This document shows positions 1,642 through 34,575 of a DNA stretch of 64,000 nt, in pieces. The stretch is from a virus. The notes under the pieces were generated by a model. It had not been told where the DNA came from. It ran no database searches and worked only from the letters and a program-made list of their open reading frames with translations. Position numbers and translations under genes: made by a program. The stretch is taken from positions 1 to 64,000 of IMG/VR virus record IMGVR_UViG_3300043773_000921, one strand, 5' to 3'. The first letter of the stretch is position 1, and the number at the start of each line of letters is the position of its first letter.

Positions 1642-4600
1642 TTAAGATATTGATTTATCATCATAAAAATTTTTATTGTTTTGTGCTAAAAGTTTAGATA
1701 ACATAATAAAGTTATTTGCTCTTTTTTTTCTTGCATTTTGTATTGCTTTGCTTTGATTTTTTTCATCTAATAATGCTTTATTATATGACTCTATATCAAC
1801 TCCTTCATCTTTAGCTTCTTTACGATATTCATCAAAAATATCCCAACCTTGATTAAAACTAGGTTCTGATAAATCATAATATTGTAAAACATTATTTGGA
1901 ACAAAAGTTTTTTCACCATTAAGCCATTTATTATATTCTTTTTCTAAATAATCATAATGTTTTTGATTCATTTTTTCACCAGGCTGAAGCATGCCTTCAT
2001 TTATAAAATACACTTCAGATGCTCTTTTTTTAGCAGCAGTTTCATAAGGCAATTGCAAATAATCCCAATGTGATGTATTGTATTCTCTTATTGTTTTACT
2101 TTCAAAAGGTGTCATATTATGCATTTTACCAGGATTATTAATGTATGGACTACGATATGGTTTCATTTCATCCTTATATGGTCTAAATTGTTGATAATGT
2201 TCTATTTCTTCAACAGCTGTTGCTATGTTTTCATCCATATTATGATCGTTTACCATCATAATATCTTTTATAAAATGATATTCTGGATTGCGTTTTTTAT
2301 CATATGTATTATTTATTTGATGTGACATCATGTATCCTAAAACACCTTGTTCATCTGCTTCTTTTTGACTTAATACACCAACTTTTTTATAATCAACATT
2401 TTGATTTCTTTGTTTTTCTAAATCATAAAAAAGACCATAAGGATTGTTAAACTGATAATCATATAATGATTGTTCTTTTTCTTTTAAATAATCATTATCA
2501 ACAATACCTATATGTGGATATTTTTTGCTACCAGGAACAAACATATAATCTGAAGATATATTTTTTTGATCATCATCTAATATATATTCAGATTCATTGA
2601 TAACATTTTCTAATGTTTGTTTATATCCTTCACTATCTTTAATAGCTTTCATTGTTTCTTTTGCTCTAAAAACTGCTTCGTTTTTTTTACCTTCATCTGT
2701 TTCTAAATTAAAATTTATATTTTCTGGCCTTACTTGTGCCCATGATTTAGATGGCATTGTAGTTCCTACAGAGTAAGCATTATTATCAGTTTTTAAAACA
2801 GTTTGTTTTGGTGCGTATCCTGTACCCCAATTATATGATGGAGTGTCTGTCATTTGTGCTGTAACAACTGCTTCTTCACCTGACCATCTAATAGGTATAC
2901 CATCTTTGTCTACATTCATTAGATTGCCAGAAGCATACATATCTCTATATTCCTTACTATCTGTATTTATTTTTTTACCATCAACTATAACTTCAGTGCC
3001 ATATTGTGCTTTTAAGTATGGGTTTATTTTACCACCTTGTTTGTATGTTTTTACAGTTGGCTTAATAAGATTACCATTTTTATCATATTTATTACCCGGT
3101 CTTTCATCGTGCCATCCTATTACAGATTCAGGATTTATGCTTTTAGCTCTTAAATATGGTGATAATTTTTTTGGTCTACTAAGATTCATATGAATAAATA
3201 AATGATCCATATTTATGTCAGGAGATATTTTTGCCATTTTAACAAGTTTACGCTTAGCCTCTTCTGGTGATTTAGATGACGCTATTTGTTGATACATTTC
3301 TGGAGTAAGCGTAACAGATCCCATAAACTTATCTTTGTCTGGAGTAAGACTTCTAATAAGTTTATTGCCAGGTTCATCTAAAACTGTATTATAAGTATAT
3401 CCTTGTGGTAATAATACATTATTTATATATCTACTTTCTCTTTCATGAATATCAGCCATTTCTAATAATTCTTTTCTAGAATCATAATATTTTCCAGCAT
3501 CTCCACCTACATCATTTAGATAACCTTTTTCTTTTGATAAATCTTTTTCAAAAAAATACAAAGTCGGAATATCATTATTTTTTAAATTATCATTATAATC
3601 GTCTCCATATCTTACAGCTAAATGACCTAATATAGAAGTTCCATCATCTACAGAACCAACTCCAGTTGACATCCATGCATTATTAGGATTATATCCCATT
3701 GCAAGTCCATCTGAACTGTTGTATGGAAATGGATTTGAACCAAATGATTTTCCTCTATAATCATTTAACAAATCGTCTTCTGTATTGTATAAAACATCTT
3801 CTATAGGAGGTAAACTTGGTTGTGTTATATTTATTCCAGTAGGTACAGTACTTTGCGGCTGACTTATATAAGGATTGTTAGAACCAGAACTCCAGTTATA
3901 ATTTAACCCTTGCGCATCTCTTTCTTTTTGAATCTCTCTTTGCTTTCTAGTATTATCAGTCATTTGATCCATAACAACCACTTCTTCTGTAGTCATTGTA
4001 GGCATTCCTTCTTCATCAACTCTCATAAGATTTCCAGAATTGTATAGTCTTCTGTATTCATCACTATCAATATCCATTTTTTTTCCATCGACTATTGCTG
4101 TACCATATTGAGCTTTTAAATATGGGTTTACTTGCGTGCCACTTCTAGCATAACCAGTATAGTCAGGTTTCATATTTTCTCTTGCGTCGTCAATACTCTG
4201 CATGGTATCTGTTGCAAGCTTTTTGTTTTCGTAACGATCTTTTTGTTTGGCGTATTTAACAGCATTTTTAATTAAATCAACTCCACCGCCAACAAGTGCT
4301 GAGATTCCACCTGTAGCTGCCATAAGAGCAGGATTAAGACCTACTTGCGTAAATGTTGCATCGCCAAAAAGATTTCCACCTAAGTTAGGTTTTGACATAC
4401 CTACTCTAGGGTCGTACTTATCTTGCATCCCTGCTTTAGCAAGACCAGATACTAAACCTACTCCTGCACCAGCTATTGCTGATGTTGCCTGACCTTTATC
4501 GCTTTTAAAAAACTCTTTGCCATTAAATCCCATTTTTCCCCAATCACCTAACACATCACTTTTTAGTCCATTGTCAGCAACATTTTCTGCAACTGGCACT

Positions 4601-5241
4601 CCTTCTACGGATGGTTTATTAAACATATTTGTCAACCAGTTTCCACCTCCTGCTTGTTCTGCTGTTGATGTTGGTACTATTTCTGTTGCTCCTGTTGTTT
4701 GAGGCACTGTTACTTGTGCTTGATTTGGAGTAGTTGTATTTGACATCCATGGCGGAGTATTATTCATTAGTTGATTTTGAATAGCTAAATATGGATTTCC
4801 GTATTTAGAGCTATCCTCTTTTGCTAAATCATAAGCATTTAATGTTCTACCCTTATATGGACTTCCTATTAAAGGCATTCCACCTGTAGTCATAGCAGTG
4901 CTAGGGTAAAACTGATTGCCAGCTTTAAATCCTAAACCTTTATCTGTAAACTCATAGTTTAACTTGTCTTGTGGGTTATACTGATTTGTTGATGTTGCAT
5001 CTCCTTGTGCTATAGATACTTTTTGTTCATTACTCAATGGGCCTGCAGTAGGTGGTTTTATTACACCTTGTTGAACAGATTGCTGCTGTTGTGTAAATGT
5101 TTGTTGTGCAGATACAAATGGATTATTACCAAATTGATTGTACATCGACATTTGATTATTGTATTGCTCTTGTGTTGCCGGAACAAATACACCATTCTGA
5201 AAATATCCAGTTTGTCCGTTGTGCGTAATAAATGGAGGCAT
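1642..5241 (-). CDS. Large modular virion cargo protein (Q/N-rich N-terminus, Gly/Ala hydrophobic segments, internal duplication, degenerate zincin domain)
   Basis: 1199 aa, directly after the tail stabiliser, where crAss cargo genes lie. Contains AIAGAGVGLVSGLA and ALMAATGGISALVGGG segments, two NPYLKAQYGT repeats and EEIEH...PYETAAKKR. Confidence 0.7.
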   Translation of the reverse strand: MPPFITHNGQTGYFQNGVFVPATQEQYNNQMSMYNQFGNNPFVSAQQTFTQQQQSVQQGVIKPPTAGPLSNEQKVSIAQGDATSTNQYNPQDKLNYEFTDKGLGFKAGNQFYPSTAMTTGGMPLIGSPYKGRTLNAYDLAKEDSSKYGNPYLAIQNQLMNNTPPWMSNTTTPNQAQVTVPQTTGATEIVPTSTAEQAGGGNWLTNMFNKPSVEGVPVAENVADNGLKSDVLGDWGKMGFNGKEFFKSDKGQATSAIAGAGVGLVSGLAKAGMQDKYDPRVGMSKPNLGGNLFGDATFTQVGLNPALMAATGGISALVGGGVDLIKNAVKYAKQKDRYENKKLATDTMQSIDDARENMKPDYTGYARSGTQVNPYLKAQYGTAIVDGKKMDIDSDEYRRLYNSGNLMRVDEEGMPTMTTEEVVVMDQMTDNTRKQREIQKERDAQGLNYNWSSGSNNPYISQPQSTVPTGINITQPSLPPIEDVLYNTEDDLLNDYRGKSFGSNPFPYNSSDGLAMGYNPNNAWMSTGVGSVDDGTSILGHLAVRYGDDYNDNLKNNDIPTLYFFEKDLSKEKGYLNDVGGDAGKYYDSRKELLEMADIHERESRYINNVLLPQGYTYNTVLDEPGNKLIRSLTPDKDKFMGSVTLTPEMYQQIASSKSPEEAKRKLVKMAKISPDINMDHLFIHMNLSRPKKLSPYLRAKSINPESVIGWHDERPGNKYDKNGNLIKPTVKTYKQGGKINPYLKAQYGTEVIVDGKKINTDSKEYRDMYASGNLMNVDKDGIPIRWSGEEAVVTAQMTDTPSYNWGTGYAPKQTVLKTDNNAYSVGTTMPSKSWAQVRPENINFNLETDEGKKNEAVFRAKETMKAIKDSEGYKQTLENVINESEYILDDDQKNISSDYMFVPGSKKYPHIGIVDNDYLKEKEQSLYDYQFNNPYGLFYDLEKQRNQNVDYKKVGVLSQKEADEQGVLGYMMSHQINNTYDKKRNPEYHFIKDIMMVNDHNMDENIATAVEEIEHYQQFRPYKDEMKPYRSPYINNPGKMHNMTPFESKTIREYNTSHWDYLQLPYETAAKKRASEVYFINEGMLQPGEKMNQKHYDYLEKEYNKWLNGEKTFVPNNVLQYYDLSEPSFNQGWDIFDEYRKEAKDEGVDIESYNKALLDEKNQSKAIQNARKKRANNFIMLSKLLAQNNKNFYDDKSIS
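2845..4128 (-). repeat. Two diverged ~60-codon internal repeats (3955-4128 and 2845-3024)
   Basis: NPYLKAQYGTAIVDGKKMDIDSDEYRRLYNSGNLMRVDEEG..QMTD versus NPYLKAQYGTEVIVDGKKINTDSKEYRDMYASGNLMNVDKDG..QMTD. Confidence 0.9.
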
Positions 5242-5243
5242 AG

Positions 5244-8200
5244 CTATGCAAATGAAAGGTTAAAATAAGTCATTAGTTCTCGTACCCAAAGTTCTTTGTC
5301 GCCATCGTATTCTAGTTCTACAATAAGATAACGACCGCGCATTGGTGTTTTGTCAAATCCAAAGTCATCGTAAATGTTTAGTTCTGGTTCCTTAATATTG
5401 TCTGCTCTGCGTATCGGCAATCTCCATTCGTTTTCTCTATATGTTGGCGCGTACCAAAACTCGTTTGTTGGTTGGAAAGGTCTCTGCTCTGCTACCTGAT
5501 GTTGCGTTTCAAACTTAATAGCACTAAACACTCTATTGTTACTTGTAATAACGATATTGTCGTAATGCTTAGTAATCTCAGCTCCTTCGGCAACAGATAC
5601 TTTTATTTTCCAAATATCTTGAAGATTATAGAAGTTGTCGTACTTATCTTTAACATCATGTAACCAGGCTTTATTGTCAACAAAACTATAAAGGTCTTCC
5701 TCTACCTGTGCATACATATTTGGCTTGTACCCATGAGTACCCAAGAATGTGTCCATCTCTTCTGAAAAAGCAATAGTCTTTGTTTCTACACCAAGTTTTA
5801 ATGTCCAAATAACTTCCTTGTATTTTCTATTGTACACACCATGTATGCCTAGTCCGCACGTATGAGCGTTTGGCAATATTTCAAGCGCATCACTATATCC
5901 AGTAGAACCAAGTGCAACTATTCTTCTAAACCATGACTGTACTCCTTTTTCTACATCAAGCATTTGAACTTCTCCACCGGCAACTCTAAGCACTGCACGT
6001 TTGTTCCAGTCAATGCAATATAATGCCTGGTTAGCTTTAATGACTCCAAATCTATGCTGAGTACCATATCCTCTTTTAATAACTTGTCTGTATTCTGTAA
6101 GTCCAGTAGACTGCCCTAATATAGCTGTGCTGCCTGCTGTACTTTGCTGTGTGACACGTTCGTTGATTGGATGAAGGTTTATTGCTCTATTCTGAAAAGA
6201 ATACAAGTAATCAAACATTACGGCTAATGCTTGTATTTCTCCAGCTTCATAGTCAAAGTCTTTTGCGTCGGCTGGAACAAACTGTCTATACCCATCACGA
6301 ACGGCACCAAAGATATGTTTAAGACTAGGTCTTATTCTAGTTGGAAATCTGTTGTCACTTAACGGCTGCAACAAATCAATACCTACTCCTGCGCGCGGGC
6401 CCAAGTATTCTGACATTCCTTTGTTATAAAAGAAACTTTCTGGACTATCATATATCCAAGCAAAGTCAATACCCGGGTTTAATGGATTAGTTTTTGGATA
6501 GAAATAGTTTCTACCAAGTTCGTATCTATAGTTTGGATTATATTTGTTTTCAGTTACAACACTTACCCAGTGACCATAACCTTTTTGAAGTGCTTCTGTT
6601 GCTTCTTCTGCATTAGTTATGTCAACTGTTTGAGATCCTACACCTTCTACATTAGCAAGTACATCATAAAAAAACTGACTAATATTTTCATTACTAGCGT
6701 TTTGAAGTTTTAAATATGTTCTTGATACAACACAATCTCCACGATAATAAGTATGCTGTGCTGATGCTAAAAAATCTGTTATGTTTTGAAACTTACCTAT
6801 TGGGTAAAATTCTGTGTTTTTAAAGTCGTAAAAATCATTGTAGTTTAATGTATTTGGATTTGCTATGTAAGTATTAACTATTGATCTATTCCACGAATCT
6901 ATAAAATGATTGTATTCCGTTCCAAATGGTGCATTATATACTGGTGCGTTTGTTATAGCAACATAATCGGAAGTTGCAACTGGTAAACTTATTTCATAAT
7001 CTTTTACATTTGGATATAAATCATGACCAACTTCATAATAATATAAACCATCTTGACTTGCTATTTTTCCTTCATCAAAACGAGATACAAATCTTGTATT
7101 GGGTACTGCAGTCCAACCAACTATATTTAAACAATTAGCATTAAATCCTTCTGGTACTACTAAGTTTAATCCATTTTGGTTATATCCCAAAAATGTTTGC
7201 ACAACACCTTTGTTAGGTGCATTTGCTCCATTATACACAGGATCAAAATTTTCCCATAATGGTAATATAGGCCCAGGGTCTGTTGCGTTTTGTTTCCAGT
7301 TTCCAACTGCAGATCTATTGTTTATTGCAATAGGATTTAAAGAAGAAGATTCTCTATTCCAATGATTGGCATATTGTGTTGTAGCTAATAACTCTATATA
7401 AGAATTATCTGGAACATTTTCTCTACCTACGTAATAATCTGTTGAAAATATTGCCAAACTATTTGGTTCAATAAAGTCATTTCTTTGTTTCATATTATAT
7501 GGTCTAGCATAATGAAACCATTTATTTACAATGTCAGGTATTACTGCCGTCCATTGACTATAAAAAAAATAACTAGCTGGTTCAAACAATGGTATAATTC
7601 TATCTGTTTTCCAATCTTCTTCTGTGCTATAATTTAAAAAAGAATTATTATATTCAAATACAGTACCATTATTGTTATAAACATAAAAATTTGGTATATC
7701 ATCATATTTGCTAATATTAGGACTTATCTTTCCATTGTAACAACGAAGACTAAGTCCTTGAAATAAAAGATTTGGTTTGCGTTCTGCTCTAGTTACATAT
7801 ACACCTTCAAGATTTTCTTGCAACCATAAAGATGTGTTGTAGATTGTAGCAGCACCAGATGTATTTACATTGATACCTTTTATAAAAGTATTTGTGCCAT
7901 CATATGCCGGCGCATTGAAGTATCTTCTAAATCTAAACTTACCTTGGTTATTACTATTTGACATTAAACCAAGGTAGTTATCGTAGCCTGTTATTGGATA
8001 TGGCAGTCCAGTAAATCCACCTTTAAATACAGGAACAATGGCAAAGCAATAAGTTTCTCCAGAGAAGTAACCTACTTTTTCTTCTGTATCGTTTCCATCA
8101 ATAGAGTACGGATTATTATTTACATCAGTTCTTATTTCATCGGCCGGGCCATTGTTTTGATAGTTTTCTGATAAAGTAAGCGCACACATAAACTTACGCA

Positions 8201-9320
8201 AATCTGGATGATCTAATACCGGGCCTCTTGTGTTTGCAAGAAAAAATGTGTTAAATGCCTGTGCTATGTCTTTGCAATAAAGTGCATCGCTTGGCTTGTA
8301 TAAAACTAGTTCATCAATAGTAAGTGCTATAAGTGGTTCATTTCCAGTGATACTTACACCTACTTGCGGACTACCATTTATGCTAAATCTTTTATCAATA
8401 AGAAAACATTCAAAGGTGTCTTGACCAAAATAACGTATGTAACCAATCTCTATGAATGGTATATTTACATCAAGACCTGACACTAAAAGATTAACAGACT
8501 TATTAGACAAATCATCTGATTCACCAGTTGATGTTACAACTGCCGATCCTGCATTATTACTAACAAATAACGGAACAGGGCCAGATTGACTCAGAAAAGA
8601 TGTGGTTAGATAGTTTAAGTCTGTGTACCTGACAAAGAAAAAATAGTTTCCTACTTTTAAACTTCCAGAGCCGTAGTTTTGAAAATCAACTATTGGGTGA
8701 TTAGAGTTTTCATTAATGCCGTTTATGTAACCAGACTGTATCATACCGGCAGTTACATATCGATTATTTGGCGCACCAGTTCTTAGTACAAATCCATTAT
8801 TGATGCTACGCCATGGCAAATTGTCGTCAGTCCAATAAAGATTAACAGAACCATCAAAATCTAATCTTGCTTCAACCCGCAATGGTTTGTCGCATTTAAA
8901 TCCAAGTAATGGAGTAGTAAACTCACCAAGATTGGTAACTGTTGATACAAGGCAAGACTCATCAATGTCTGGTATGTATATTTGGGCAGTATAGTTTCTT
9001 AATGGCCTATAATCTCTGGTTATATAGTTTGTTGTTGGGTCAGGAGAAGGATAAGAACCAATCTCACAAAAACTTGTAGATGGATTGTATGAAAAAATAA
9101 AAAGGAATCCATCAAACTCGACAGACCCTATTGGAACGTAATTTTCTTTAAGTTGAAATGTTTCTTCGTTACCTTTTATGTTTGCGGCCCAAAGAGTTCC
9201 TTCTTCCCTACGAGCAAGCCTTATGTTATGACCGTCAAGATAAATATCTTGTGATCTATCGGTAAGGCTCATATCTGAGTTTAAGCCCTTATAGAATCTG
9301 TTTACAGTGGGCTGTGCCAT
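5244..9320 (-). CDS. Tail stabilisation/muzzle protein (P22 gp10-like, crAss Tstab)
   Basis: 1358 aa. N-terminal NRFYKGLNSD...NIKGN and C-terminal PMRGRYLIVEL are typical of crAss Tstab. Follows the tail tube gene. Confidence 0.8.
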   Translation of the reverse strand: MAQPTVNRFYKGLNSDMSLTDRSQDIYLDGHNIRLARREEGTLWAANIKGNEETFQLKENYVPIGSVEFDGFLFIFSYNPSTSFCEIGSYPSPDPTTNYITRDYRPLRNYTAQIYIPDIDESCLVSTVTNLGEFTTPLLGFKCDKPLRVEARLDFDGSVNLYWTDDNLPWRSINNGFVLRTGAPNNRYVTAGMIQSGYINGINENSNHPIVDFQNYGSGSLKVGNYFFFVRYTDLNYLTTSFLSQSGPVPLFVSNNAGSAVVTSTGESDDLSNKSVNLLVSGLDVNIPFIEIGYIRYFGQDTFECFLIDKRFSINGSPQVGVSITGNEPLIALTIDELVLYKPSDALYCKDIAQAFNTFFLANTRGPVLDHPDLRKFMCALTLSENYQNNGPADEIRTDVNNNPYSIDGNDTEEKVGYFSGETYCFAIVPVFKGGFTGLPYPITGYDNYLGLMSNSNNQGKFRFRRYFNAPAYDGTNTFIKGINVNTSGAATIYNTSLWLQENLEGVYVTRAERKPNLLFQGLSLRCYNGKISPNISKYDDIPNFYVYNNNGTVFEYNNSFLNYSTEEDWKTDRIIPLFEPASYFFYSQWTAVIPDIVNKWFHYARPYNMKQRNDFIEPNSLAIFSTDYYVGRENVPDNSYIELLATTQYANHWNRESSSLNPIAINNRSAVGNWKQNATDPGPILPLWENFDPVYNGANAPNKGVVQTFLGYNQNGLNLVVPEGFNANCLNIVGWTAVPNTRFVSRFDEGKIASQDGLYYYEVGHDLYPNVKDYEISLPVATSDYVAITNAPVYNAPFGTEYNHFIDSWNRSIVNTYIANPNTLNYNDFYDFKNTEFYPIGKFQNITDFLASAQHTYYRGDCVVSRTYLKLQNASNENISQFFYDVLANVEGVGSQTVDITNAEEATEALQKGYGHWVSVVTENKYNPNYRYELGRNYFYPKTNPLNPGIDFAWIYDSPESFFYNKGMSEYLGPRAGVGIDLLQPLSDNRFPTRIRPSLKHIFGAVRDGYRQFVPADAKDFDYEAGEIQALAVMFDYLYSFQNRAINLHPINERVTQQSTAGSTAILGQSTGLTEYRQVIKRGYGTQHRFGVIKANQALYCIDWNKRAVLRVAGGEVQMLDVEKGVQSWFRRIVALGSTGYSDALEILPNAHTCGLGIHGVYNRKYKEVIWTLKLGVETKTIAFSEEMDTFLGTHGYKPNMYAQVEEDLYSFVDNKAWLHDVKDKYDNFYNLQDIWKIKVSVAEGAEITKHYDNIVITSNNRVFSAIKFETQHQVAEQRPFQPTNEFWYAPTYRENEWRLPIRRADNIKEPELNIYDDFGFDKTPMRGRYLIVELEYDGDKELWVRELMTYFNLSFA

Positions 9321-26512: not shown

Positions 26513-27001
26513 TTAAGTTGTGATTACGCTAATAACATTATCAGCAGCATTATACGATAAGGTTTTTGTCGCTACTAAAGTCGCACCAGTTGAATAAACA
26601 ATAGTAAAAATGTTGTTAGTATTTCCACTAGGATTTCCAGCATCAACACCAGGGTAATAAGTAATATCAATATTGTTACCCGGTATCATGTCAAAGTTAG
26701 CCAACACTGAAAGTTCATCTAGCATTGACGTAGTTGACAAGATAGGATATAGTAGTTCATACACATCAGCTCTTGTTGCGCCGTATGCCGTAGAAGTAAT
26801 GTCTAATATATCATCAGCATATTCTACAGCAGCAATGTCTGTGCTATCTACTTCGCGCTCAAATAAAAAGCCTGATACTCCGTAGTTGCGTACCTTGACA
26901 GATCCTTTTGGAAATGCAGCAAATGGTGCCGGGTCTGCAGGAATTTTAAATACTATAGCGCCGTCCTGCTCGTACACCTGTATTGTTGAAAATAAACTCA
27001 T
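26513..27001 (-). CDS. Tail-fibre-associated protein
   Basis: C-terminal TIVYSTGATLVATKTLSYNAADNVISV, typical of genes preceding YKFNP-type fibres. Confidence 0.55.
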   Translation of the reverse strand: MSLFSTIQVYEQDGAIVFKIPADPAPFAAFPKGSVKVRNYGVSGFLFEREVDSTDIAAVEYADDILDITSTAYGATRADVYELLYPILSTTSMLDELSVLANFDMIPGNNIDITYYPGVDAGNPSGNTNNIFTIVYSTGATLVATKTLSYNAADNVISVITT

Positions 27002-27005
27002 ATGA

Positions 27006-27695
27006 TTATAGATTTATAACGCCCCACTGATTTGTTTTAATGTATTGAAATATCATTCCATCGCCATTTACCATACTAACAGAAGCTAAACTACCAACTA
27101 TACTTTGTCCTACATTGGCATTGACTGTTGCCGTTAAATCTGTGCAGTATATCTTATACATTTGTCCTAACACAGGAGTTGCAGGCAAAGTAAGAATAAT
27201 TGCATCAGAATTTATTACTATGATATATTCAGTTAACTGCAACGTGCCAGAAGTATCATAGTAAACTAGATTATCTTCGCAGTAACATAATGGACCACGT
27301 ACAGGAATAATTGGTGCTAAATCAACAGAAGTTATTACTTGCACTCCATCGTGTTCGCCAGTTAGTTCAAGTGTTGTTCCATTTAATATTAACTCTAAAT
27401 CATGATTATGAGTAATATCTATAGTGTTACTAAAAGGAATGCCGGCATAAGTACCGGCAAGTGTAATAATATTTGTAGTAGGATTAAAAGTAAGGCCAAT
27501 GGTTAATGGTTCTTGTAGATCTGTAAGGTTAACAGTTCTAGCTACAGTTGCATTATCGTAAATGTATGTTAATGTAAGTATGTTTGTTACGGGGTCATAC
27601 GCTAGTTGTATATCTAGCGGACAACATGTTTCACAACCCGGAGGACAAGGGTTTGGAAACATTACTGAATCATTAAACTTATCAAACAATCCCAT
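27006..27695 (-). CDS. Tail fibre/spike-like beta protein with Cys-rich N-terminus
   Basis: CPPGCETCC, repeated YDPVTNILTL/FNPTTNIITL units and a LTLPATPVLGQ C-terminal fibre domain. Confidence 0.6.
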   Translation of the reverse strand: MGLFDKFNDSVMFPNPCPPGCETCCPLDIQLAYDPVTNILTLTYIYDNATVARTVNLTDLQEPLTIGLTFNPTTNIITLAGTYAGIPFSNTIDITHNHDLELILNGTTLELTGEHDGVQVITSVDLAPIIPVRGPLCYCEDNLVYYDTSGTLQLTEYIIVINSDAIILTLPATPVLGQMYKIYCTDLTATVNANVGQSIVGSLASVSMVNGDGMIFQYIKTNQWGVINL

Positions 27696-27696
27696 A

Positions 27697-28278
27697 TTAA
27701 CTTATTTTCATTCTTGCGTGATACGGTTTTTTATTCTCAGGAATCTCAAATAAATACAATGACAATCCTTCCTGTTCCTCGTTACCAGTTTCCATTTCAG
27801 ACTTTAGTTTAAACTCTTCGCATAACCTAGTAGATACCTCTAATGCTTTAGCTATCTGAATCTCATCATCGGGAGTATTGTCAAGACTCATTAACATCTT
27901 TCTCCAGTGCTCTGCTTTAGCCTTAAACATATCGACATTCAGATCGTTTTCAGACAACTGTATTCTTTTGTAGAAATCAATCAGGTTAATAACCTGTTCC
28001 GTTTTCTCTATGTTTTTCCAGTTGGACCAGTCTTTAAACAGTCCGTAGTTTGCAGTGACCTGCTCTCTTCTTTCTACCGGTGGCAGTTGCCAGTAAGGGT
28101 TATCTTTCTTGGTATAGACAAAGTAAATGTAAGTAATCACCTGTGCAAACTTTACCTCTTTTGGAAACTCACCTTTTACAGCTATATATTCCGGTACCGT
28201 TTGCCCTGCAGGAGTAACACATACTTCTCCCATATTAAGATAAAACATAGAATCGCTTTTATAGTGCGAACATAACAA
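27697..28278 (-). CDS. Helical hypothetical protein upstream of the packaging operon (small-terminase candidate)
   Basis: YIYFVY...NPY...ER pattern recalled from crAss-like genomes. Function is inference only. Confidence 0.4.
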   Translation of the reverse strand: MLCSHYKSDSMFYLNMGEVCVTPAGQTVPEYIAVKGEFPKEVKFAQVITYIYFVYTKKDNPYWQLPPVERREQVTANYGLFKDWSNWKNIEKTEQVINLIDFYKRIQLSENDLNVDMFKAKAEHWRKMLMSLDNTPDDEIQIAKALEVSTRLCEEFKLKSEMETGNEEQEGLSLYLFEIPENKKPYHARMKIS

Positions 28279-28294
28279 TATTATTTAATACCGC

Positions 28295-28324
28295 AAAAAA
28301 AATGCCCGAGTTTTTACTCAGGCA
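28295..28324 (-). terminator. Rho-independent terminator after rusA
   Basis: Minus strand TGCCTGAGT-AAAA-ACTCGGGCA followed by T8. Confidence 0.75.
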
Positions 28325-28348
28325 AATCGAAACACTTTTAAACCAAAA

Positions 28349-28759
28349 CTATATGACAACTTTAATATGTCCATGTAAACCCCAAACTTTTGTCATTTTA
28401 CCAATGGTATGAACATGACTGTCTTCTTTCATCAAGGCATCCATAAAAGCTTTGAGCATATTGTCAATATCCGGCTTCATCTTATGCGGCATATTAATCC
28501 TTTCTAAACGCTCTTTCATTTTTGGCTTACTTAATGTAGAACTAATTGGTATTGTTACCACAAATGTGATGCTTTTTATCTCATCAAACTTAAACTCGTC
28601 TGGCTTTATTCCAAGTTTAATAAGTTCTGAGTTCCACAAGATCCTAATATCGTCTTTCCAGCCCATATATTTCTTGTATCGCTTGTCGGCATACATCTGT
28701 TTCTGTGTAGTCCTTACGGCACCCATCGGTTCAATGTCCAAATACAAATCTAGTTCCAT
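28349..28759 (-). CDS. rusA: RusA-family Holliday junction resolvase
   Basis: KPDIDNMLKAFMDAL..EDSHV catalytic signature. Confidence 0.88.
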   Translation of the reverse strand: MELDLYLDIEPMGAVRTTQKQMYADKRYKKYMGWKDDIRILWNSELIKLGIKPDEFKFDEIKSITFVVTIPISSTLSKPKMKERLERINMPHKMKPDIDNMLKAFMDALMKEDSHVHTIGKMTKVWGLHGHIKVVI

Positions 28760-28762
28760 GTT

Positions 28763-29224
28763 TCACTTTAGTAAAATAGCTGTAGTAATAATCCCTGCTG
28801 CAAATCCTCCGATAATACCCCAGGTTGTCCCTATAAAGATACCTCTTTTTCGCTCATTTTTAGCATATTTAAGGCCCTGCTGCCAAAGATTATTTAACTC
28901 AGTTATTTTATCAGAACTCATATTGTACGCACGTTGGTAAGTACCTACTCGTTCCTCTAAAGTTCGCTCTATACTCTTATGTTCTGCTATCTGGAAATCA
29001 AAAGATCTGATAGTATTTTCATTTTTATCAATGATACTCTTGTAGTCACCAATAGTTTTTTCCTTAGACTTGATAATTCCAATCACATCATTCCACTTCT
29101 TAGTAGATATAAGCACCGTATCTTTTCTTGTCATATAGGATATGCTAATATCGCCATAAACATGAACTGTATCAAACTGACTAAATGCCAGTATCGGAAG
29201 CAGTAAAAACAATATTACTTTCAT
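28763..29224 (-). CDS. Signal peptide + coiled coil + C-terminal TM protein (spanin-like candidate)
   Basis: MKVILFLLLPILAFSQ signal, heptad-rich middle, C-terminal GIFIGTTWGIIGGFAAGII. Confidence 0.5.
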   Translation of the reverse strand: MKVILFLLLPILAFSQFDTVHVYGDISISYMTRKDTVLISTKKWNDVIGIIKSKEKTIGDYKSIIDKNENTIRSFDFQIAEHKSIERTLEERVGTYQRAYNMSSDKITELNNLWQQGLKYAKNERKRGIFIGTTWGIIGGFAAGIITTAILLK

Positions 29225-30057
29225 ATCCGGACATCCTGTATTTTGTTTTCAAACTCTTTGATGTTCCAGGCTCTTGCCAATCTAGTCATTCCGATGCCAC
29301 CACCAAAACGATCAAAGAACTTATGCTGCAAAAACTTATCTAGTTCAGCAACAACTCTTTTCTCGGTAAACAACTCAAACAATTTCTCGGCATACTTGCC
29401 ACCTTCAATCGTATAAAAGTTCTCACGCATCTTCTCTGGATCACTGCTTCTCTGTGCCGAGCCAATAGTTTCCTGCCCATACATGATGACATCACACTTA
29501 GCATAAATATCAGCATACTTGCAGTACATGTTCCAGAAAGGATTAGTACGTAATGGGAAGTTTTTCAAGAATACTACATCACCCTGCTCATCTCTCAACC
29601 TTGACTCATGCTCATTCTCGATAATCTCAGTACCATAGGCAACACAAATATCGTTATAGTCAACATCAACACCAGTGCTAAACCCTAAATGCTGCAACAA
29701 ATCCTTTTCAAGCTCTAGCATCACATTCATATCCCCCTTACTCTCAAACTCAAACATAGGAAATATCAACTCATGCCGGCCAGGTATCGGATTCTTCTCC
29801 TGCCTGTAACTAGTACTAATACAATACACCCCATCCCAGTCAGGATTATTAAGCAACTCATGCTCAAGCCACATCTGTCCAGTCTGTGGTAAAGGCCAGA
29901 CATCTCTATTATAATCAAACACAGCAATACTATGCGGATTCTCACATGCCGCAAGTATCGATAACCTTGATTGAGTAGGAACTTCCTTGAACCCTCTGCC
30001 CCTAAAAAAAGCCCGCATCTTAGTTACGAGCAAATCATAAACCTTAGTTTCGTACAT
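29221..30057 (-). CDS. Stand-alone class IIb aminoacyl-tRNA-synthetase catalytic domain (truncated AsnRS / archaeal-type asparagine synthetase-like)
   Basis: Motif 1 region FF..RGFKEVPT, LPQTGQMWLE, motif 2 SYRQEKNPIPGRH..IFPMFEFE, ETIGSAQR, motif 3 GGGIGMTRL. 278 aa with no anticodon-binding OB fold. Confidence 0.85.
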   Translation of the reverse strand: MYETKVYDLLVTKMRAFFRGRGFKEVPTQSRLSILAACENPHSIAVFDYNRDVWPLPQTGQMWLEHELLNNPDWDGVYCISTSYRQEKNPIPGRHELIFPMFEFESKGDMNVMLELEKDLLQHLGFSTGVDVDYNDICVAYGTEIIENEHESRLRDEQGDVVFLKNFPLRTNPFWNMYCKYADIYAKCDVIMYGQETIGSAQRSSDPEKMRENFYTIEGGKYAEKLFELFTEKRVVAELDKFLQHKFFDRFGGGIGMTRLARAWNIKEFENKIQDVRI

Positions 30058-30088
30058 AATACATTTATTTAAAAGTGAACAATAAATA

Positions 30089-30421
30089 CTACCATCTTAA
30101 CAAGTCATCTTTCAAATCCTCTATCTCCTTAATGTCATCTAAAATAACATCATGTAAACTATCAATCTGCTTCTGGTTCATCTTACGAATCTCTGTCAGT
30201 TCCTCTATCTTCCGATAACTACTCTCAATACTCTTAACCAACATGCTATCCCTCATCCTAACCTCAGTATTTAACACAAGCAAATCAGTGTTAATCTTGT
30301 CGATTTTATCCTGTAACTGATCATTCCTTACAATGCTATATCTAGTAAAGGCTATCTGCAACATCATAAAAAATAAACTAACAGCAGTAATGCCGCCATA
30401 AACAAGCATAGACCTATTCAT
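30089..30421 (-). CDS. N-terminal TM + coiled-coil protein (i-spanin-like candidate)
   Basis: LVYGGITAVSLFFMMLQIAF followed by a coiled coil. Start reassigned to ATG 30421. Confidence 0.5.
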   Translation of the reverse strand: MNRSMLVYGGITAVSLFFMMLQIAFTRYSIVRNDQLQDKIDKINTDLLVLNTEVRMRDSMLVKSIESSYRKIEELTEIRKMNQKQIDSLHDVILDDIKEIEDLKDDLLRW

Positions 30422-30716
30422 TACAAGCCCCTCCCCTCTGACTACCAACAATCACTTCCTCATAAGACACCCCCGGCTCATTATAAACATAATGATTACT
30501 GACATTCTCAACAACAGACTTACAATAAAGCAAGTAATCTACAACCAATGCAGCAAACTTCTCATAGCGACCATCAGCACTACTACTCAACTCCCTCCAG
30601 CCATCATAACTCCTGCCCATACAATGAGCATCCTCCCAACCAATCCACCACATACGCTCCTCATGGTCATCAACATTAACACCCCGCCATTCTAAATATT
30701 CCAATATAGACATCAT
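30414..30716 (-). CDS. Hypothetical protein
   Basis: 100 aa ORF in operon. Confidence 0.55.
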   Translation of the reverse strand: MMSILEYLEWRGVNVDDHEERMWWIGWEDAHCMGRSYDGWRELSSSADGRYEKFAALVVDYLLYCKSVVENVSNHYVYNEPGVSYEEVIVGSQRGGACNE

Positions 30717-30720
30717 AATC

Positions 30721-31227
30721 CTACTTCTTTAACTTGTTAACAATCAATTCTACCAACTCTGCCTTACTTAACCTACCATCGCCATCATCACCCAACAACT
30801 CCAGCAACTCAGCCTTCTTCATCTTACTATAATCAGGCTCTTTCAACACACCAATACTCTCACTCGGAGCAGCACCAGCCTCATCCGCCTCAACAACCTC
30901 ATCCCCAATAACCGGTGCAACATACTTATACCCCCCTATCTTCGGTACAACAAACAACTTAATATCAATACTATCATCATACCTCAAACTCATAGACTGA
31001 CTAGTATGACTAACAACAAAATCATACACACTCTCACTAGGAATACCAGGGCCATCAACAACCATCTTCCCATTAACCTCATAACAGTTCCACCCATCTA
31101 CACCCAACAATCTTCCAACCTCCTCAACTACCCCCGGTACCCGACAATCTTTAGTCGTAACCAAAGTACCCAACTTTACATGACCACCAGCAGCAGTCTT
31201 TACATAATAATTTATCCTTGTCTGCAT
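30721..31227 (-). CDS. Hypothetical protein with C-terminal Rho-N/HeH-like helical domain
   Basis: DYSKMKKAELLELL...LSKAELVELI. First gene of the left arm. Confidence 0.6.
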   Translation of the reverse strand: MQTRINYYVKTAAGGHVKLGTLVTTKDCRVPGVVEEVGRLLGVDGWNCYEVNGKMVVDGPGIPSESVYDFVVSHTSQSMSLRYDDSIDIKLFVVPKIGGYKYVAPVIGDEVVEADEAGAAPSESIGVLKEPDYSKMKKAELLELLGDDGDGRLSKAELVELIVNKLKK

Positions 31228-31260
31228 AATAATATAGTTTTAATAGTGAACGAATAATGG

Positions 31261-31292
31261 CACAATATACACAGATAGTACGTTTTATGCAA
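31261..31292 (-). promoter_or_regulatory. Host sigma70-type promoter driving the left arm
   Basis: Minus strand TTGCAT-17 nt-TATATT(GTG), ending about 35 nt upstream of ATG 31227. Confidence 0.55.
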
Positions 31293-31387
31293 GTTTTTGG
31301 TAGGGGAAAAAGAAAAAAGACGGGAGGGCACTTAATGTATCGTACCCCCGCGTTAAATCATTATCTAACTTTTTAATTTCATGTATT

Positions 31388-31765
31388 ATGAGCAAAGTTT
31401 CATTGGGAAAAGTAAGTGAAATCATTGAAAGAGGTGAGAAAAACTCTCCACTTTTCATGAAAGAAGGAGAACATCTTGTTAAATTGTTGGGAAAAGGCAC
31501 TTGGGGGCAGAAAGCTTCGCAGTGTATCTTGACTGATAAGGGTACCATTGGTGCCTATCAGTTGATAGACCAAATGAGAAAGGATGGTATCCTGGAAGAT
31601 TTCCTGGACGAAGCAGAGTTTGTGTTTGAAACTGGTGAAGAGTTATTCGTCACCATAAATGCAAAAGCTGTAGTAGAAACTCGACTTCCTGACGAAGAAG
31701 AAGAGGAGGAAGAAGACGAAGAAGAAGTCGTCGTCGTCAAGAAGAAAACTTCTACAAAGAAGTAA
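31388..31765 (+). CDS. Small acidic protein with poly-Glu tract and Lys tail, first gene of the plus arm
   Basis: 125 aa ending DEEEEEEEDEEEVVVVKKKTSTKK, followed by a strong terminator. Confidence 0.75.
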   Translation: MSKVSLGKVSEIIERGEKNSPLFMKEGEHLVKLLGKGTWGQKASQCILTDKGTIGAYQLIDQMRKDGILEDFLDEAEFVFETGEELFVTINAKAVVETRLPDEEEEEEEDEEEVVVVKKKTSTKK

Positions 31766-31772
31766 GAAAGAT

Positions 31773-31801
31773 CCCTGCGCCTTCGGGCGTGGGGTTTTTT
31801 T
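31773..31801 (+). terminator. Rho-independent terminator
   Basis: CCCTGCGCC-TTCG-GGCGTGGGG followed by T7, with a cUUCGg tetraloop. Confidence 0.9.
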
Positions 31802-31887
31802 CAGATGTGCCTACTACTGTTAGTAAGAGGCACAACTATTAGATAATGATTTACATATAGCGTTGACTGTCAGACTGTTAGTGCTAT

Positions 31888-31903
31888 TGTTCCACGTGGA
31901 ACA
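31888..31903. promoter_or_regulatory. parS: parS centromere-like site (perfect 16-bp palindrome)
   Basis: TGTTCCACGTGGAACA, intergenic, matches the chromosomal parS consensus TGTTNCACGTGNAACA. Confidence 0.85.
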
Positions 31904-32060
31904 TGATAGAGGAAAGGTGTGAGTGGCTACCATCTGCTGCGCATTACTCTACTCTACATCACATCGCACAACTCTATTAGTGTTATACATACTGATACTG
32001 TGAGTGATTGCGTGGGTTTTATTATAGGTGAGATTATTAACAATCAAATATATTATTATT

Positions 32061-32354
32061 ATGGAGAGTACATTCAGTGTATATCAAGTCAGGACATATA
32101 ACTATAATAGCAGAGAGCATAGCTTAGATCTTTCTTACAGCACATTAGACAAAGCCAAAGAAAGATTATTTGAATACTGTGAGAGTAAAAATACTCACAC
32201 GGAAACTGTTGACCTGGAAGGTAGGTGTGAAACATATCCTCATAATGAGGATGTTGATAACTGGATAAGTAGAGGAAAAGCGTCAATATATTATTTTTCT
32301 AAATATGGAAACTACAAATGTGTAGTTTACGTACAGGAAATATTTGTGTATTGA
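32061..32354 (+). CDS. Hypothetical early protein
   Basis: ORF with an AT-rich leader. YSTLDKAKE is a common phage small-protein motif. Start reassigned to ATG 32061. Confidence 0.65.
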   Translation: MESTFSVYQVRTYNYNSREHSLDLSYSTLDKAKERLFEYCESKNTHTETVDLEGRCETYPHNEDVDNWISRGKASIYYFSKYGNYKCVVYVQEIFVY

Positions 32355-32361
32355 TTTCATT

Positions 32362-32430
32362 GCGGGCATGCTATTGTAGTGTGCCTGCTTATTATATTTA
32401 TTTACTGCCTCCGATATAATGTTGTAGGCA
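32362..32430 (+). promoter_or_regulatory. Two tandem intergenic hairpins (TGCCT/AGGCA family)
   Basis: GCGGGCATGCTA-TTG-TAGTGTGCCTGC and TGCCTCCGATA-TAA-TGTTGTAGGCA-TTT. Confidence 0.5.
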
Positions 32431-32458
32431 TTTCTTTAACACTTAAAAAACTTTACTA

Positions 32459-32707
32459 ATGAAAAACTTGTCAAAAAAACATTTGCTTCGCTGGCTTATG
32501 GATCAGCAGCACAAGTTCACTCAAGGCAATAACCTCGAGGAGACAGAACTTATTGTAGGATACTTTAACGGTGTATTGAGTGCAGAGTTTATATGCCGTA
32601 ATGGCTATGGCTCTGTATGGAGTACTAACAGATATTTGTCTGTTAAGTGTCCGAAATGTTTTACTCATTTGTTTGCGGACAATAGTCCAATAACATTTGA
32701 TTTATAA
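32459..32707 (+). CDS. Hypothetical early protein (CxxC)
   Basis: 82 aa ORF. Confidence 0.6.
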   Translation: MKNLSKKHLLRWLMDQQHKFTQGNNLEETELIVGYFNGVLSAEFICRNGYGSVWSTNRYLSVKCPKCFTHLFADNSPITFDL

Positions 32708-32716
32708 GATTTACAA

Positions 32717-32970
32717 CCTGAGTTTACAGGTGCGAGGATAGTATGTACTATCCGTTATTAACAATTATTTATAACCATTAAATGTAATCCCGTAAGATTA
32801 CAACTACTATGAGCTTTTAAGCAAAAGTAAAGTGCCTTTTAGTACGTTGAGTTCCTTAAGTCCTAGGCAAGGTCTATTCGATATTGAATAGTAGGGTAAG
32901 ACTCAACCAGGTATTCTCATTATCTGCCACAAAACAAGTTCCTAATCCTATAAGAGAAATGGATGGGAAC
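32717..32970 (+). ncRNA. Candidate structured non-coding RNA or cis element
   Basis: ORF-free gap with several stems: GGATAGTA/TACTATCC, TGTAATC/GATTACA, nested GTTGAGT/ACTCAAC and GTTCC/GGAAC. Confidence 0.35.
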
Positions 32971-33049
32971 ATTTTAAAACAAATATTATTATAAAACAAG
33001 TATGCGTGTAGAGCTCGAGCACGTGTAAGGATGACAAGAGTATATAGTT

Positions 33050-33289
33050 ATGTGGGTAACACAAAATCAAATGGATGATACTACATTGAACAAAATGTTT
33101 AGTCGTTGGAATCAAGCATTAGCTAATGGAGAGATAACTGACATTGATAATACTACAGAAATGTGGTATGGTGAGTTAGTTATGACACACGAAGATGGTA
33201 TAGATTATATAACAGCACCTATACAGAAATATGATAAAGAAGGGTATATAGATTTTGTTGTTAATGTTTCAATACCATTTGAAATATGA
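33050..33289 (+). CDS. Hypothetical acidic early protein
   Basis: 79 aa ORF. Confidence 0.6.
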   Translation: MWVTQNQMDDTTLNKMFSRWNQALANGEITDIDNTTEMWYGELVMTHEDGIDYITAPIQKYDKEGYIDFVVNVSIPFEI

Positions 33290-33432
33290 AGCAGTTTATT
33301 TCTAACAACTGGGGGATGCTTATGACATTAGTGTTATCAGTGTTCCTCTATTATTACTGGACTCAACTGCCTACATTAGTAGGTTTTGTACTTGGGTTCT
33401 TCGCATGCATTGGTCCGGCATGCAAGAACTAG
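33286..33432 (+). CDS. Small membrane protein (48 aa, below the ORF-track cutoff)
   Basis: ATGA overlap with the upstream stop. MKQFISNNWGMLMTLVLSVFLYYYWTQLPTLVGFVLGFFACIGPACKN. Confidence 0.6.
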   Translation: MKQFISNNWGMLMTLVLSVFLYYYWTQLPTLVGFVLGFFACIGPACKN

Positions 33433-33971
33433 ACGATATAATAAAGAAATGCTCTACATTATTCTTGGCTAGTGATGTGGAGCTATCTTTGTTGTTATTG
33501 CAATCGATTATTGATAGTAGCGATAGAAAGATACTGTATGAGTATGCTGTTACATCATACTTAAGTTTCATAGCTGATGAGTTGGTATCTCATGCAATTA
33601 AATGTAGTGAGATAACATCTGATGATGAGTATAGTCTTGAATATTTTAATGGTGATATCAAACATTTTGTTTATGATTGTATTCACTACGATATTAAAGA
33701 TGACTATGACTACTCTACAGATTTTGAAAGTGGAAGTAGAATAATAATACATGAGCGTATGTCAGTTGTACTTACCATCTGGTTTAACTCATCTTACAGA
33801 TTATTATTTTCACTTGATATAGTAAGAAGCTATGACAAATATAGGTCTGATTTGAACTTACATCAATGTTGTTATGAGATCCAAGATGGAGATATAACGA
33901 CATCAGTTACTGGCGATACGTTTATTCAAAACATTCTTTTATTTTTAAAACAAAGTTATGTTAGACATTAG
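33420..33971 (+). CDS. Hypothetical protein
   Basis: ORF with likely start MQELDD at 33420. Confidence 0.6.
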   Translation: MQELDDIIKKCSTLFLASDVELSLLLLQSIIDSSDRKILYEYAVTSYLSFIADELVSHAIKCSEITSDDEYSLEYFNGDIKHFVYDCIHYDIKDDYDYSTDFESGSRIIIHERMSVVLTIWFNSSYRLLFSLDIVRSYDKYRSDLNLHQCCYEIQDGDITTSVTGDTFIQNILLFLKQSYVRH

Positions 33972-34575
33972 TATGATTGTTGAACTTATGTTTTCTTATG
34001 ATGACAACAAAAAAGGATATGCTGAGATGCTGGCAAAAGAGCAGTTTGGTTATGAAGAAGGCACCAACAAAGGTGATTTTAATTATGACTTAACTAAATC
34101 ATTTGCTATCAAGATCATGGAGCATATGTTTGATTTATACAGCAAAGAAATACTTGTATCTTTTTATTCACTTGAAGAGTTATATAGAGATAACAGAGAG
34201 AGTGTTTTTAACTGCCCAGGTTTTCTATGCACAGCTAAACCAATAGAAAGAGGTTACACTAAATCTTTTGATGGTAGCACTGAAAAGATTGACATTAAGT
34301 TTAAAGTAAGCAAGTTTGTTAATGTATCACATTTACTTGTTGATAACATATATGAACATATGTTTAGCTTTAACTTAGTTGTTAAGAAACACACATTGTC
34401 TAATTTTATTTGTTGTGAAGCTTCTATTCCAAATCATTGGAGTGATGTTCACAACGATGAGTTGACATACAGTATAGATGACTTAAGCTACTCTAGAGGT
34501 ACATATATGATGACCTTTAAAAACAAGTACGACGTAATGGAAAAATTATTTAAGCACTTTTTAATAAATAAATAA
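33958..34575 (+). CDS. Hypothetical protein
   Basis: 205 aa ORF overlapping the upstream stop. Confidence 0.65.
   Translation: MLDISMIVELMFSYDDNKKGYAEMLAKEQFGYEEGTNKGDFNYDLTKSFAIKIMEHMFDLYSKEILVSFYSLEELYRDNRESVFNCPGFLCTAKPIERGYTKSFDGSTEKIDIKFKVSKFVNVSHLLVDNIYEHMFSFNLVVKKHTLSNFICCEASIPNHWSDVHNDELTYSIDDLSYSRGTYMMTFKNKYDVMEKLFKHFLINK

Follow-up and report, generated by a model that had tools for sequence, protein, structure and literature searches.

The window analysed here is a stretch of 64,000 nucleotides (positions 1 to 64,000) of IMG/VR virus record IMGVR_UViG_3300043773_000921, and this study concerns a minus-strand gene within it, hereafter X, coding for a 278-aa protein that resembles the catalytic core of asparaginyl-tRNA synthetase (AsnRS). 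Our analyses indicate that X probably does not charge tRNA and instead serves nucleotide synthesis, along a route not described before. Three independent kinds of genomic evidence, namely neighbourhood, fusion and phyletic displacement, tie the X family to the step preceding dihydroorotate dehydrogenase (PyrD) in pyrimidine biosynthesis.

The X locus in a distant crAss-like phage

The phage record from which the window was drawn comprises 88,548 bases and is estimated to be ~62% complete. The large terminase matches 113 phage records and shares 25-29% identity with its counterparts in crAss-like phages of Bacteroidota, while the major head protein, portal and terminase match PHROGs 11589, 6547 and 6681, respectively. 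On the strength of the terminase identity and these three matches, the source is a distant crAss-like phage. The features referred to below all lie on the minus strand:

28303..28324, minus: terminator-like hairpin (9 pairs, 5 of them G-C) followed by T8, closing the X unit (terminator scan)
28349..28759, minus: RusA-like Holliday junction resolvase, final gene of the X unit (phrog_140, E 2e-12; phrog_6537, E 1.3e-07)
28763..29224, minus: downstream gene, 153 aa, with hydrophobic N- and C-terminal segments (residues 2-22 and 128-147)
29221..30057, minus: X, stand-alone AsnRS-like class IIb catalytic core, 278 aa (P0001), ATG start (open reading frame (ORF), PF00152, phrog_29758)
30058..30088, minus: AT-rich spacer of 31 nt from the upstream stop to the X start (read from the sequence)
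30089..30451, minus: upstream gene, 120 aa, with one transmembrane (TM)-like segment (residues 15-35, by hydrophobicity) and no PHROG match
30414..31227, minus: two small genes (100 and 168 aa), without PHROG match, opening the X unit at a divergent junction at ~31.3 kb
1642-9320 and 55303-63876, minus: giant Asn-rich ORFs of 1199, 1358 and 2857 aa, the last extending to the window edge region

The minus-strand unit thus reads as three small genes, X, the 153-aa gene, the RusA-like resolvase and a terminator-like site. The ATG of the 153-aa gene overlaps the X stop codon (ATGA), which would imply that the two are translationally coupled; the 153-aa product itself weakly matches a function-less PHROG family (E 0.0064). 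An earlier note, made from the sequence, had placed X between two TM/coiled-coil genes, among genes of lysis type, and had given it a conserved leader of its own. TM-like hydrophobic segments were indeed recovered in the 120-aa and 153-aa genes on either side. A lysis role for the surroundings was rejected for lack of any family match: none of the nine neighbouring proteins compared with PHROGs matched a lysis family, the sole clear match being the RusA-like resolvase two genes downstream. The leader likewise proved to be the 31-nt spacer, in which neither a hairpin nor an upstream ORF (uORF) was found, real leaders occurring instead in related phages; the same-species loci L002-L004 also have a gap of 31 nt, and an upstream scan found no terminator-like site there.

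Positions 28000-32500 hold seven terminator-like sites against 2.0 expected. A further terminator-like hairpin followed by T7 (30011-30031, minus strand) falls inside X itself, at the start of the coding sequence; its T-run encodes a conserved Phe-Phe and may be due to chance. GC skew changes from -0.28 to +0.18 over 30000-34000, flipping at the divergent junction (~31.3-32 kb), where the coding strand also changes. A tRNA gene search of the window found none, and a megablast comparison of positions 27000-33000 with the phage collection returned no near-identical DNA. The asparagine richness that had been remarked on in several virion proteins was borne out, as Asn makes up 8.8-9.4% of the three giant ORFs of the virion region.

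An AsnRS-like core without an anticodon-binding domain

Residues 10-232 of X align to positions 28-269 of the 308-position PF00152 profile (tRNA-synt_2, class II D/K/N synthetases) with an E-value of 2.7e-12 and 46.8 bits, above the gathering cut-off of 25. In a Pfam scan of X at E up to 1, PF00152 was the sole family found and the AsnA family was not matched. Because PF00152 alone was found, over these residues, X is a catalytic core without the N-terminal oligonucleotide-binding (OB)-fold anticodon-binding domain; it aligns solely to the catalytic part of AsnRS chains (model residues 2-268 on human residues 244-531). The motif 2 and 3 arginines and the acidic metal and ATP residues are present (R85, E87, R94/H95, E103, E105, D189, E196, R203 and R259), R85 and R259 being conserved in 45 and 47, respectively, of 51 family members. 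Of the 25 columns at least 90% conserved in the 51-sequence family alignment, X keeps 24, the exception being a conservative change of L to M. The earlier description of a class IIb aminoacyl-tRNA synthetase (aaRS) core with motifs 2 and 3 intact and no anticodon-binding domain therefore stands, and the catalytic residues, on whose retention in an alignment that description had been staked beforehand, are kept.

The same alignment of diverse relatives was the input for an AlphaFold (AF2) model, which reached a mean predicted local distance difference test score (pLDDT) of 96.3 and a predicted template modelling score (pTM) of 0.92. Foldseek and VIA-align agreed in ranking class IIb catalytic domains first. 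AsnRS (human 8H53/8TC8, Brugia 2XTI, P. horikoshii 1X54) was the best match by both structure and profile, with Z 27.1-27.9 and a root-mean-square deviation of 2.0-2.2 over 245-246 residues, followed by archaeal-type aspartyl-tRNA synthetase (AspRS; Z 26.5-27.0), archaeal asparagine synthetase A (AS-AR; Z 23.6-24.2) and EpmA/GenX (Z 23.4-23.9). Since a single-sequence search of solved structures with X gave weak matches (best E 0.05), the family profile was used instead, and it returned the same order: AsnRS 8.7e-15, AspRS 5.3e-13, AS-AR 4.3e-7 and EpmA 1.4e-5.

AsnRS and X have in common motif 2, motif 3, the flipping-loop Glu and an 'L-E' pair after the Q-x-x-Q motif (L64-E65 in X), where cytoplasmic AspRS has 'K-Q', with a Lys to which the side chain of aspartate binds. 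By profile, E39, R85 and E87 of X align with E279, R322 and E324 of human AsnRS, residues in contact with the asparagine moiety, phosphate and adenylate of Asn-AMP (PMC10831071). The predicted pocket is AsnRS-like and favours an asparagine-type substrate. Family-specific conserved residues (C38, N176, K187 and R250) differ from the aligned AsnRS residue at each position, and X differs from AsnRS further in its missing anticodon-binding domain, its 20-23% identity and the genomic partners of its family, which are pyrimidine enzymes.

No NCBIfam model claims the protein. X scored 24.3 bits with AsnRS proper (TIGR00457, cut-off 342.6), a sub-threshold 22 bits with the NCBIfam AspRS model, 19 bits with archaeal asparagine synthetase A (NF005053, cut-off 322; X residues 133-215 only) and 12 bits with EpmA/GenX (TIGR00462, cut-off 286.9), so that by sequence it is not AsnRS, AS-AR, AsnA or EpmA under any curated threshold. 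Its residues 5-263 instead cover positions 8-264 of the 267-position phrog_29758 profile (E 3.8e-85, 286.4 bits), which is annotated as 'unknown function'.

Pyrimidine genes beside, fused to and missing around the X family

The family is large, with at least 8000 relatives of near length (every scored candidate matched); the 120 listed measure 217-302 aa and all carry PF00152. Clustering at 50% left 601 representatives at E <=0.001 and 154 at E <=1e-30. In IMG/VR at least 599 stretches match X, of which 598 were confirmed, and among prokaryotes, sampled at one genome per species, 325 stretches were confirmed and 80 kept, mainly from Patescibacteria, DPANN archaea, Chlamydiota, Babeliales, Rickettsiales, Coxiellaceae and a few Bacteroidota lineages. 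Its carriers are mostly jumbo phages, cyanomyoviruses and ultrasmall or intracellular prokaryotes, with few Bacteroidota. Apart from same-species contigs (95-99%), the search for relatives of the phage sequence gave 21-43% identity over short stretches.

Nine of 50,697 phage records carry a homologue, including three huge uncultured phages and, under the annotation 'tRNA ligase', Prochlorococcus phages P-SSM2, P-SSM5 and P-SSM7. None of the nine is crAss-like, even though 113 records match the terminase, which agrees with the earlier remark that X is unusual cargo for such a phage. Only two of 49 X-bearing viral records share the terminase of this phage, both from the same species, while for the others record size and estimated completeness together imply genomes of ~250-465 kb; on these grounds X is a typical jumbo-phage gene and an exception among crAss-like phages. 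A literature search found no paper on the function of the family, and protein-atlas clusters bear generic names only. Sullivan et al. (2010, PMC3037559) tabulate the gene among host-like genes of sporadic occurrence, as 'tRNA ligase', T4-GC 194, and the passages of PMC7824862 covered here make no mention of it.

Neighbours were called with our own ORF caller (at least 60 aa, greedy longest) and clustered within four genes of X, which was found in 157 of 161 loci; 76 of the 80 cellular loci were thereby listed. In 18 of these 76, PyrD, PyrE or PyrF lies at most four genes from X in the same direction, and the 18 span five phyla or comparable groups (Bacteroidota, Gammaproteobacteria, Rickettsiales, Chlamydiota and Patescibacteria). 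The recurrent neighbours are dihydroorotate dehydrogenase (13 loci) and PyrE/PyrF (12, plus three with a separate PyrF cluster), together with phosphoenolpyruvate carboxykinase (11), DNA polymerase III delta' (12), Dus (10) and an ArgH-type lyase. The order is X-PyrF-PyrE-PyrD-phosphoribosyl pyrophosphate (PRPP) synthetase (Prs) in Rickettsiales, X-PyrD-PyrE-PyrF in Parachlamydiales, PyrEF, PyrD, X in Chitinophagales and Saprospiraceae, and Dus-PyrE-amidohydrolase (NF005365, cytosine-deaminase-like)-ArgH-like lyase-X in Patescibacteria.

The same partners recur within single polypeptides. Nine of 11 longer relatives combine PF01180 with PF00152 as PyrD fusions in which X is C-terminal (about residues 312-637), and a further representative, P0160, joins X to orotidine monophosphate (OMP) decarboxylase (PyrF). 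The phage protein is 49-53% identical to the PyrD fusions, over 94% of its length, and 52-63% identical to the operon members, which places it by homology in this PyrD-linked AsnRS-like family. A metagenomic relative, P0272 (614 aa), carries a GIY-YIG and NUMOD3 homing-endonuclease module ahead of the X domain in one reading frame, which suggests that a mobile endonuclease may have inserted at the X gene in some phages.

A FastTree phylogeny of 117 rows took its viral members from even-numbered loci only and was confined to non-identical proteins of 240-340 aa, to which five fusions and two cyanophage proteins were added. It places the phage protein on a long branch within a clade (99% local support) of 35 viral rows and two Cytophagaceae genes, the latter in an amidohydrolase-ArgH-like-X arrangement with PyrD ~5.6 kb away. 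Because the operon-linked rows are scattered through the rest of the tree (9 changes), the pyrimidine link is, as far as the tree indicates, a property of the whole family and not of one clade.

Other arrangements recur around X. An NF005365 amidohydrolase ('hypothetical protein') and an ArgH-type lyase stand directly upstream of it in Patescibacteria and Cytophagaceae (L115:5008-8837, L098, L112, L082 and L083), preceded in L112 and L115 by a PyrE-type phosphoribosyltransferase; these may be extra steps of the same pathway. Patescibacteria (L133, L134, L138, L140, L149 and others) hold a conserved SerRS-FtsQ-like-Dus-X-DNA polymerase III delta' block, in some genomes without PyrD and PyrF; Dus is a flavin enzyme related to PyrD. 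In one Woesearchaeota locus (L103:6517-7326), the genes ahead of X encode an arginase-family protein and a LigT-like phosphoesterase, and LigT-X occurs in four DPANN loci. Routes based on citrulline or urea are suggested by the ArgH-like, amidohydrolase and arginase neighbours, which occur in few loci.

Phyletic tests covered 50 carrier genomes taken from the 80 kept cellular loci (of 325 confirmed) and picked for long contigs and taxonomic spread. Aspartate transcarbamoylase (ATCase, TIGR00670) exceeded its cut-off in two of the 50 and in all 14 controls; PyrC (TIGR00857) was above its own cut-off in the same two carriers, and matched all 14 controls, 11 of them over the cut-off. PyrD (PF01180) was above its cut-off in 33 carriers, 31 of them without ATCase, and in 14 of 14 controls. 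Among Bacteroidota carriers (genomes of 2.3-6.3 Mb), PyrD reached at least 249 bits in 11 of 11 and ATCase was found in none. A phylum-wide sample around one Bacteroidota carrier contained X in one of 301 genomes, the centre itself, and since it was uninformative for complementarity a family-level sample was used. In this sample, 81 genomes of the family around one carrier, X occurred in two, ATCase in 63 (none of them carriers) and neither in 16; ATCase in 0 of 11 Bacteroidota carriers versus 63 of the 79 members lacking X gives a Fisher p of 3e-7. That ATCase is missing as well makes it less likely that X only cyclises N-carbamoyl-aspartate as a PyrC replacement.

Three examples come from complete or near-complete genomes. 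A complete Rickettsiales chromosome has the X-PyrF-PyrE-PyrD-Prs operon and lacks ATCase, PyrC, CarB, AsnB and AsnRS. One gammaproteobacterial carrier keeps CarB, followed by a 108-aa open frame matching the first 70 positions of ATCase (G005:C1:1468876-1472271), which looks like a pyrB remnant. A Chitinophagales chromosome retains CarB, AsnB and AsnRS, its transcarbamoylase-like protein scoring just 68 bits. X fills the operon place of CarAB, PyrB (ATCase) and PyrC (dihydroorotase), upstream of PyrD-PyrE-PyrF, where these are missing; in fold and chemistry it is unrelated to them, being a class II adenylate-forming enzyme and neither a transcarbamoylase nor an amidohydrolase, and its product is presumed to be equivalent.

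Asparagine signals, alternative functions and the proposed route

Related phages carry asparagine-linked signals beside X. A perfect hairpin with a T-run stands 19-56 nt before X in 50 of 79 viral loci (e.g. L006, L009, L028; L005-L081), often with a conserved AATCC stem, and 21 of 38 distinct leaders have an ATG-initiated uORF ending inside the hairpin. Asn is the commonest residue of these hairpin-stopping uORFs (71 of 314, 22.6%, vs 30 of 542, 5.5%, in other frames; p 3e-13, for leaders that are related to each other), and 13 of the 21 contain an Asn-Asn run. An antiterminator was not evident in 13 representative leaders, the 5' arm pairing upstream at 0-4 of 7-9 positions. On the simplest reading, fast translation of Asn codons would let the ribosome occlude the terminator, so that plentiful Asn-tRNA would turn the gene on; whether the switch works in this direction is ambiguous where the Asn codons lie in the hairpin arm. 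Asn-codon leaders without an antiterminator fit asparagine as the substrate of X. The device is absent from the X locus of this window.

In P-SSM2 (L162:6783-6870) and P-SSM7 (L163:6796-6882), X is followed after no more than 9 nt by a tRNA-Asn(GUU) gene of 87-88 nt, whose variable arm is long and class-II-like. The tRNA feature in the P-SSM2 record itself lies ~2 kb further on than the ARAGORN call. No tRNA-Asn gene was found in the 80 viral and 40 cellular loci scanned.

The best surviving alternative, which we nevertheless consider unlikely, is that X is a tRNA-independent, ammonia-dependent asparagine synthetase like AS-AR or AsnA, supplying Asn for Asn-rich phage proteins. AS-AR (PDB 3P8T, 3REU, 1NNH; ~290 aa) is likewise a class IIb core that stands alone and has no anticodon domain; X is of similar size, shares its fold (Z 24.2) and has a weak match to NCBIfam asparagine synthetase A. 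The Asn content of the large virion-region proteins, the Asn-rich uORF and terminator leaders of 50 of 79 related phage loci, which recall classical amino-acid biosynthetic attenuators, and the tRNA-Asn gene adjoining X in two cyanophages would all suit such a role. However, X stays at 19 bits against the AS-AR cut-off of 322 and matches no AsnA Pfam family; AsnRS and AspRS are closer than AS-AR by structure and by profile (1e-14 vs 4e-7), the leaders show no antiterminator, and this reading explains neither the fusions to PyrD and PyrF nor why ATCase is missing.

The carriers argue in the same direction. AsnRS exceeded its cut-off in 22 of the 50, and 20 had no match at E 1e-40, including both complete genomes that lack AsnRS, AsnB and CarB, so that many carriers have no AsnRS to use the Asn that AS-AR would make. 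GatB was present in all five Patescibacteria carriers checked, which indicates that Asn is made on tRNA there. Since AsnRS and AsnB are missing from the two complete carriers and GatB is used, free Asn would have no translational use in them. Asparagine supply, proposed for X in the earlier note, therefore cannot be the general role of the family, given AsnRS in 22 of 50 carriers and its lack in two complete genomes.

Less probable still is an action on tRNA, in which X would charge a dedicated tRNA(GUU) through recognition of the acceptor or variable arm, or would use Asn-tRNA(Asn) as a substrate donor. The long-variable-arm tRNA-Asn(GUU) within 9 nt of X in P-SSM2 and P-SSM7 points to it, as do the retention of all class II aminoacylation residues in the catalytic core, the Dus and SerRS neighbours of X in Patescibacteria, and the carriers without AsnRS or AsnB, which make Asn on tRNA only. 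It is opposed by the lack of an anticodon-binding domain, by tRNA-Asn in none of the 120 loci scanned or in the window, and by fusion partners that are PyrD and PyrF and not translation proteins.

It is very improbable that X is a protein-aminoacylating ligase like EpmA/GenX/PoxA (the elongation factor P (EF-P) lysine aminoacylase; PDB 3A5Y, 3A5Z, 3G1Z) or a producer of dinucleotide polyphosphate signals, as the earlier note had also considered, for EpmA, although likewise an anticodon-less class IIb paralogue of the same fold that acts on a non-tRNA acceptor (profile E 1.4e-5), is derived from LysRS unlike X, lies structurally further away than AsnRS (Z 23.9 vs 27.1-27.9) and scores 12 bits against 286.9, and neither EF-P nor EpmB is among the annotated recurrent neighbours of X; for signalling, none of the analyses yielded evidence.

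We regard it as somewhat more likely than not that X is an AsnRS-derived adenylate-forming enzyme providing an ATP-dependent, carbamoyl-phosphate-independent entry to dihydroorotate, and that in the phage it is an auxiliary pyrimidine gene, the chemistry being inferred. X would be an AsnRS derivative that lost its anticodon-binding domain, remained catalytically intact by its residues and forms an adenylate, and its family would work with the late enzymes PyrD, PyrE and PyrF. In cells it would convert an asparagine- or aspartate-type substrate and ATP, without carbamoyl phosphate, into dihydroorotate or its immediate precursor, standing in for carbamoyl-phosphate synthetase, ATCase and dihydroorotase. 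The phage copy would bypass the feedback-controlled pathway entry by pushing host amino acid into the PyrD-PyrE-PyrF steps of the host, and the benefit of such an auxiliary metabolic gene would be pyrimidines for phage DNA. What the analyses show is the fold, the intact catalytic residues, the family membership, the links by operon, fusion and phyletic pattern, and the rarity of X among crAss-like phages; the reaction, the substrate, of which asparagine is favoured, and the phage benefit are put forward here as predictions.

Several observations weigh against this pyrimidine entry. In 17 of the 50 carriers no PyrD exceeded the cut-off, and in one complete Patescibacteria genome X occurs without any of PyrD, PyrF, ATCase, PyrC and CarB, so that feeding PyrD cannot be the sole role of X; among Patescibacteria without PyrD, PyrF exceeded its cut-off in one of five, and X there adjoins Dus and SerRS. 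Some large Bacteroidota carriers keep dihydroorotase-like proteins (200-262 bits), several of which adjoin a second DHO_dh-family match. Our choice of the 50 genomes favours long contigs, and the cellular evidence is all genomic and comes mostly from metagenome-assembled genomes. In the phage record (88.5 kb, ~62% complete), no match to PF01180, PF00215 or PF00156 was found; without PyrD, PyrF and a phosphoribosyltransferase of its own, the phage would need these late enzymes from its host. Since the phage also lacks these genes and its X, on a long branch, falls into a distinct clade made up mostly of viral proteins, function is transferred to it by homology at 50-63% identity. The Asn-rich leaders may just as well be attenuators of the classical biosynthetic type, and the pairing of X with an odd tRNA-Asn in cyanophages hints at a tRNA-linked step.

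A bolder form of the pyrimidine proposal, which we offer tentatively and with more doubt than belief, is that X is a one-enzyme 'dihydroorotate synthetase' acting on asparagine, phage-borne and often gated by a leader peptide that reads Asn-tRNA. The alpha-amino carbamate of asparagine, or an equivalent C1 adduct, would be adenylated and the side-chain amide would close the pyrimidine ring, one ATP thereby replacing carbamoyl-phosphate synthetase, ATCase and dihydroorotase. Phages would in this way make pyrimidines from host asparagine, outside host feedback control.

Accounts of de novo pyrimidine synthesis usually give a single universal pathway of six steps. If the proposed function is true, its first steps can be replaced by a widespread enzyme of aaRS origin, which would constitute a new entry into nucleotide metabolism and would account for the occurrence of PyrD, PyrE and PyrF without ATCase in many ultrasmall or intracellular prokaryotes and in some free-living Bacteroidota. 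Phage auxiliary metabolic genes would likewise gain a new class, with members in at least 599 viral contig stretches that currently go by the label 'tRNA ligase' in the records of cultured cyanophages. The crAss-like phage of this window, for its part, has picked up a gene that is otherwise typical of jumbo phages.

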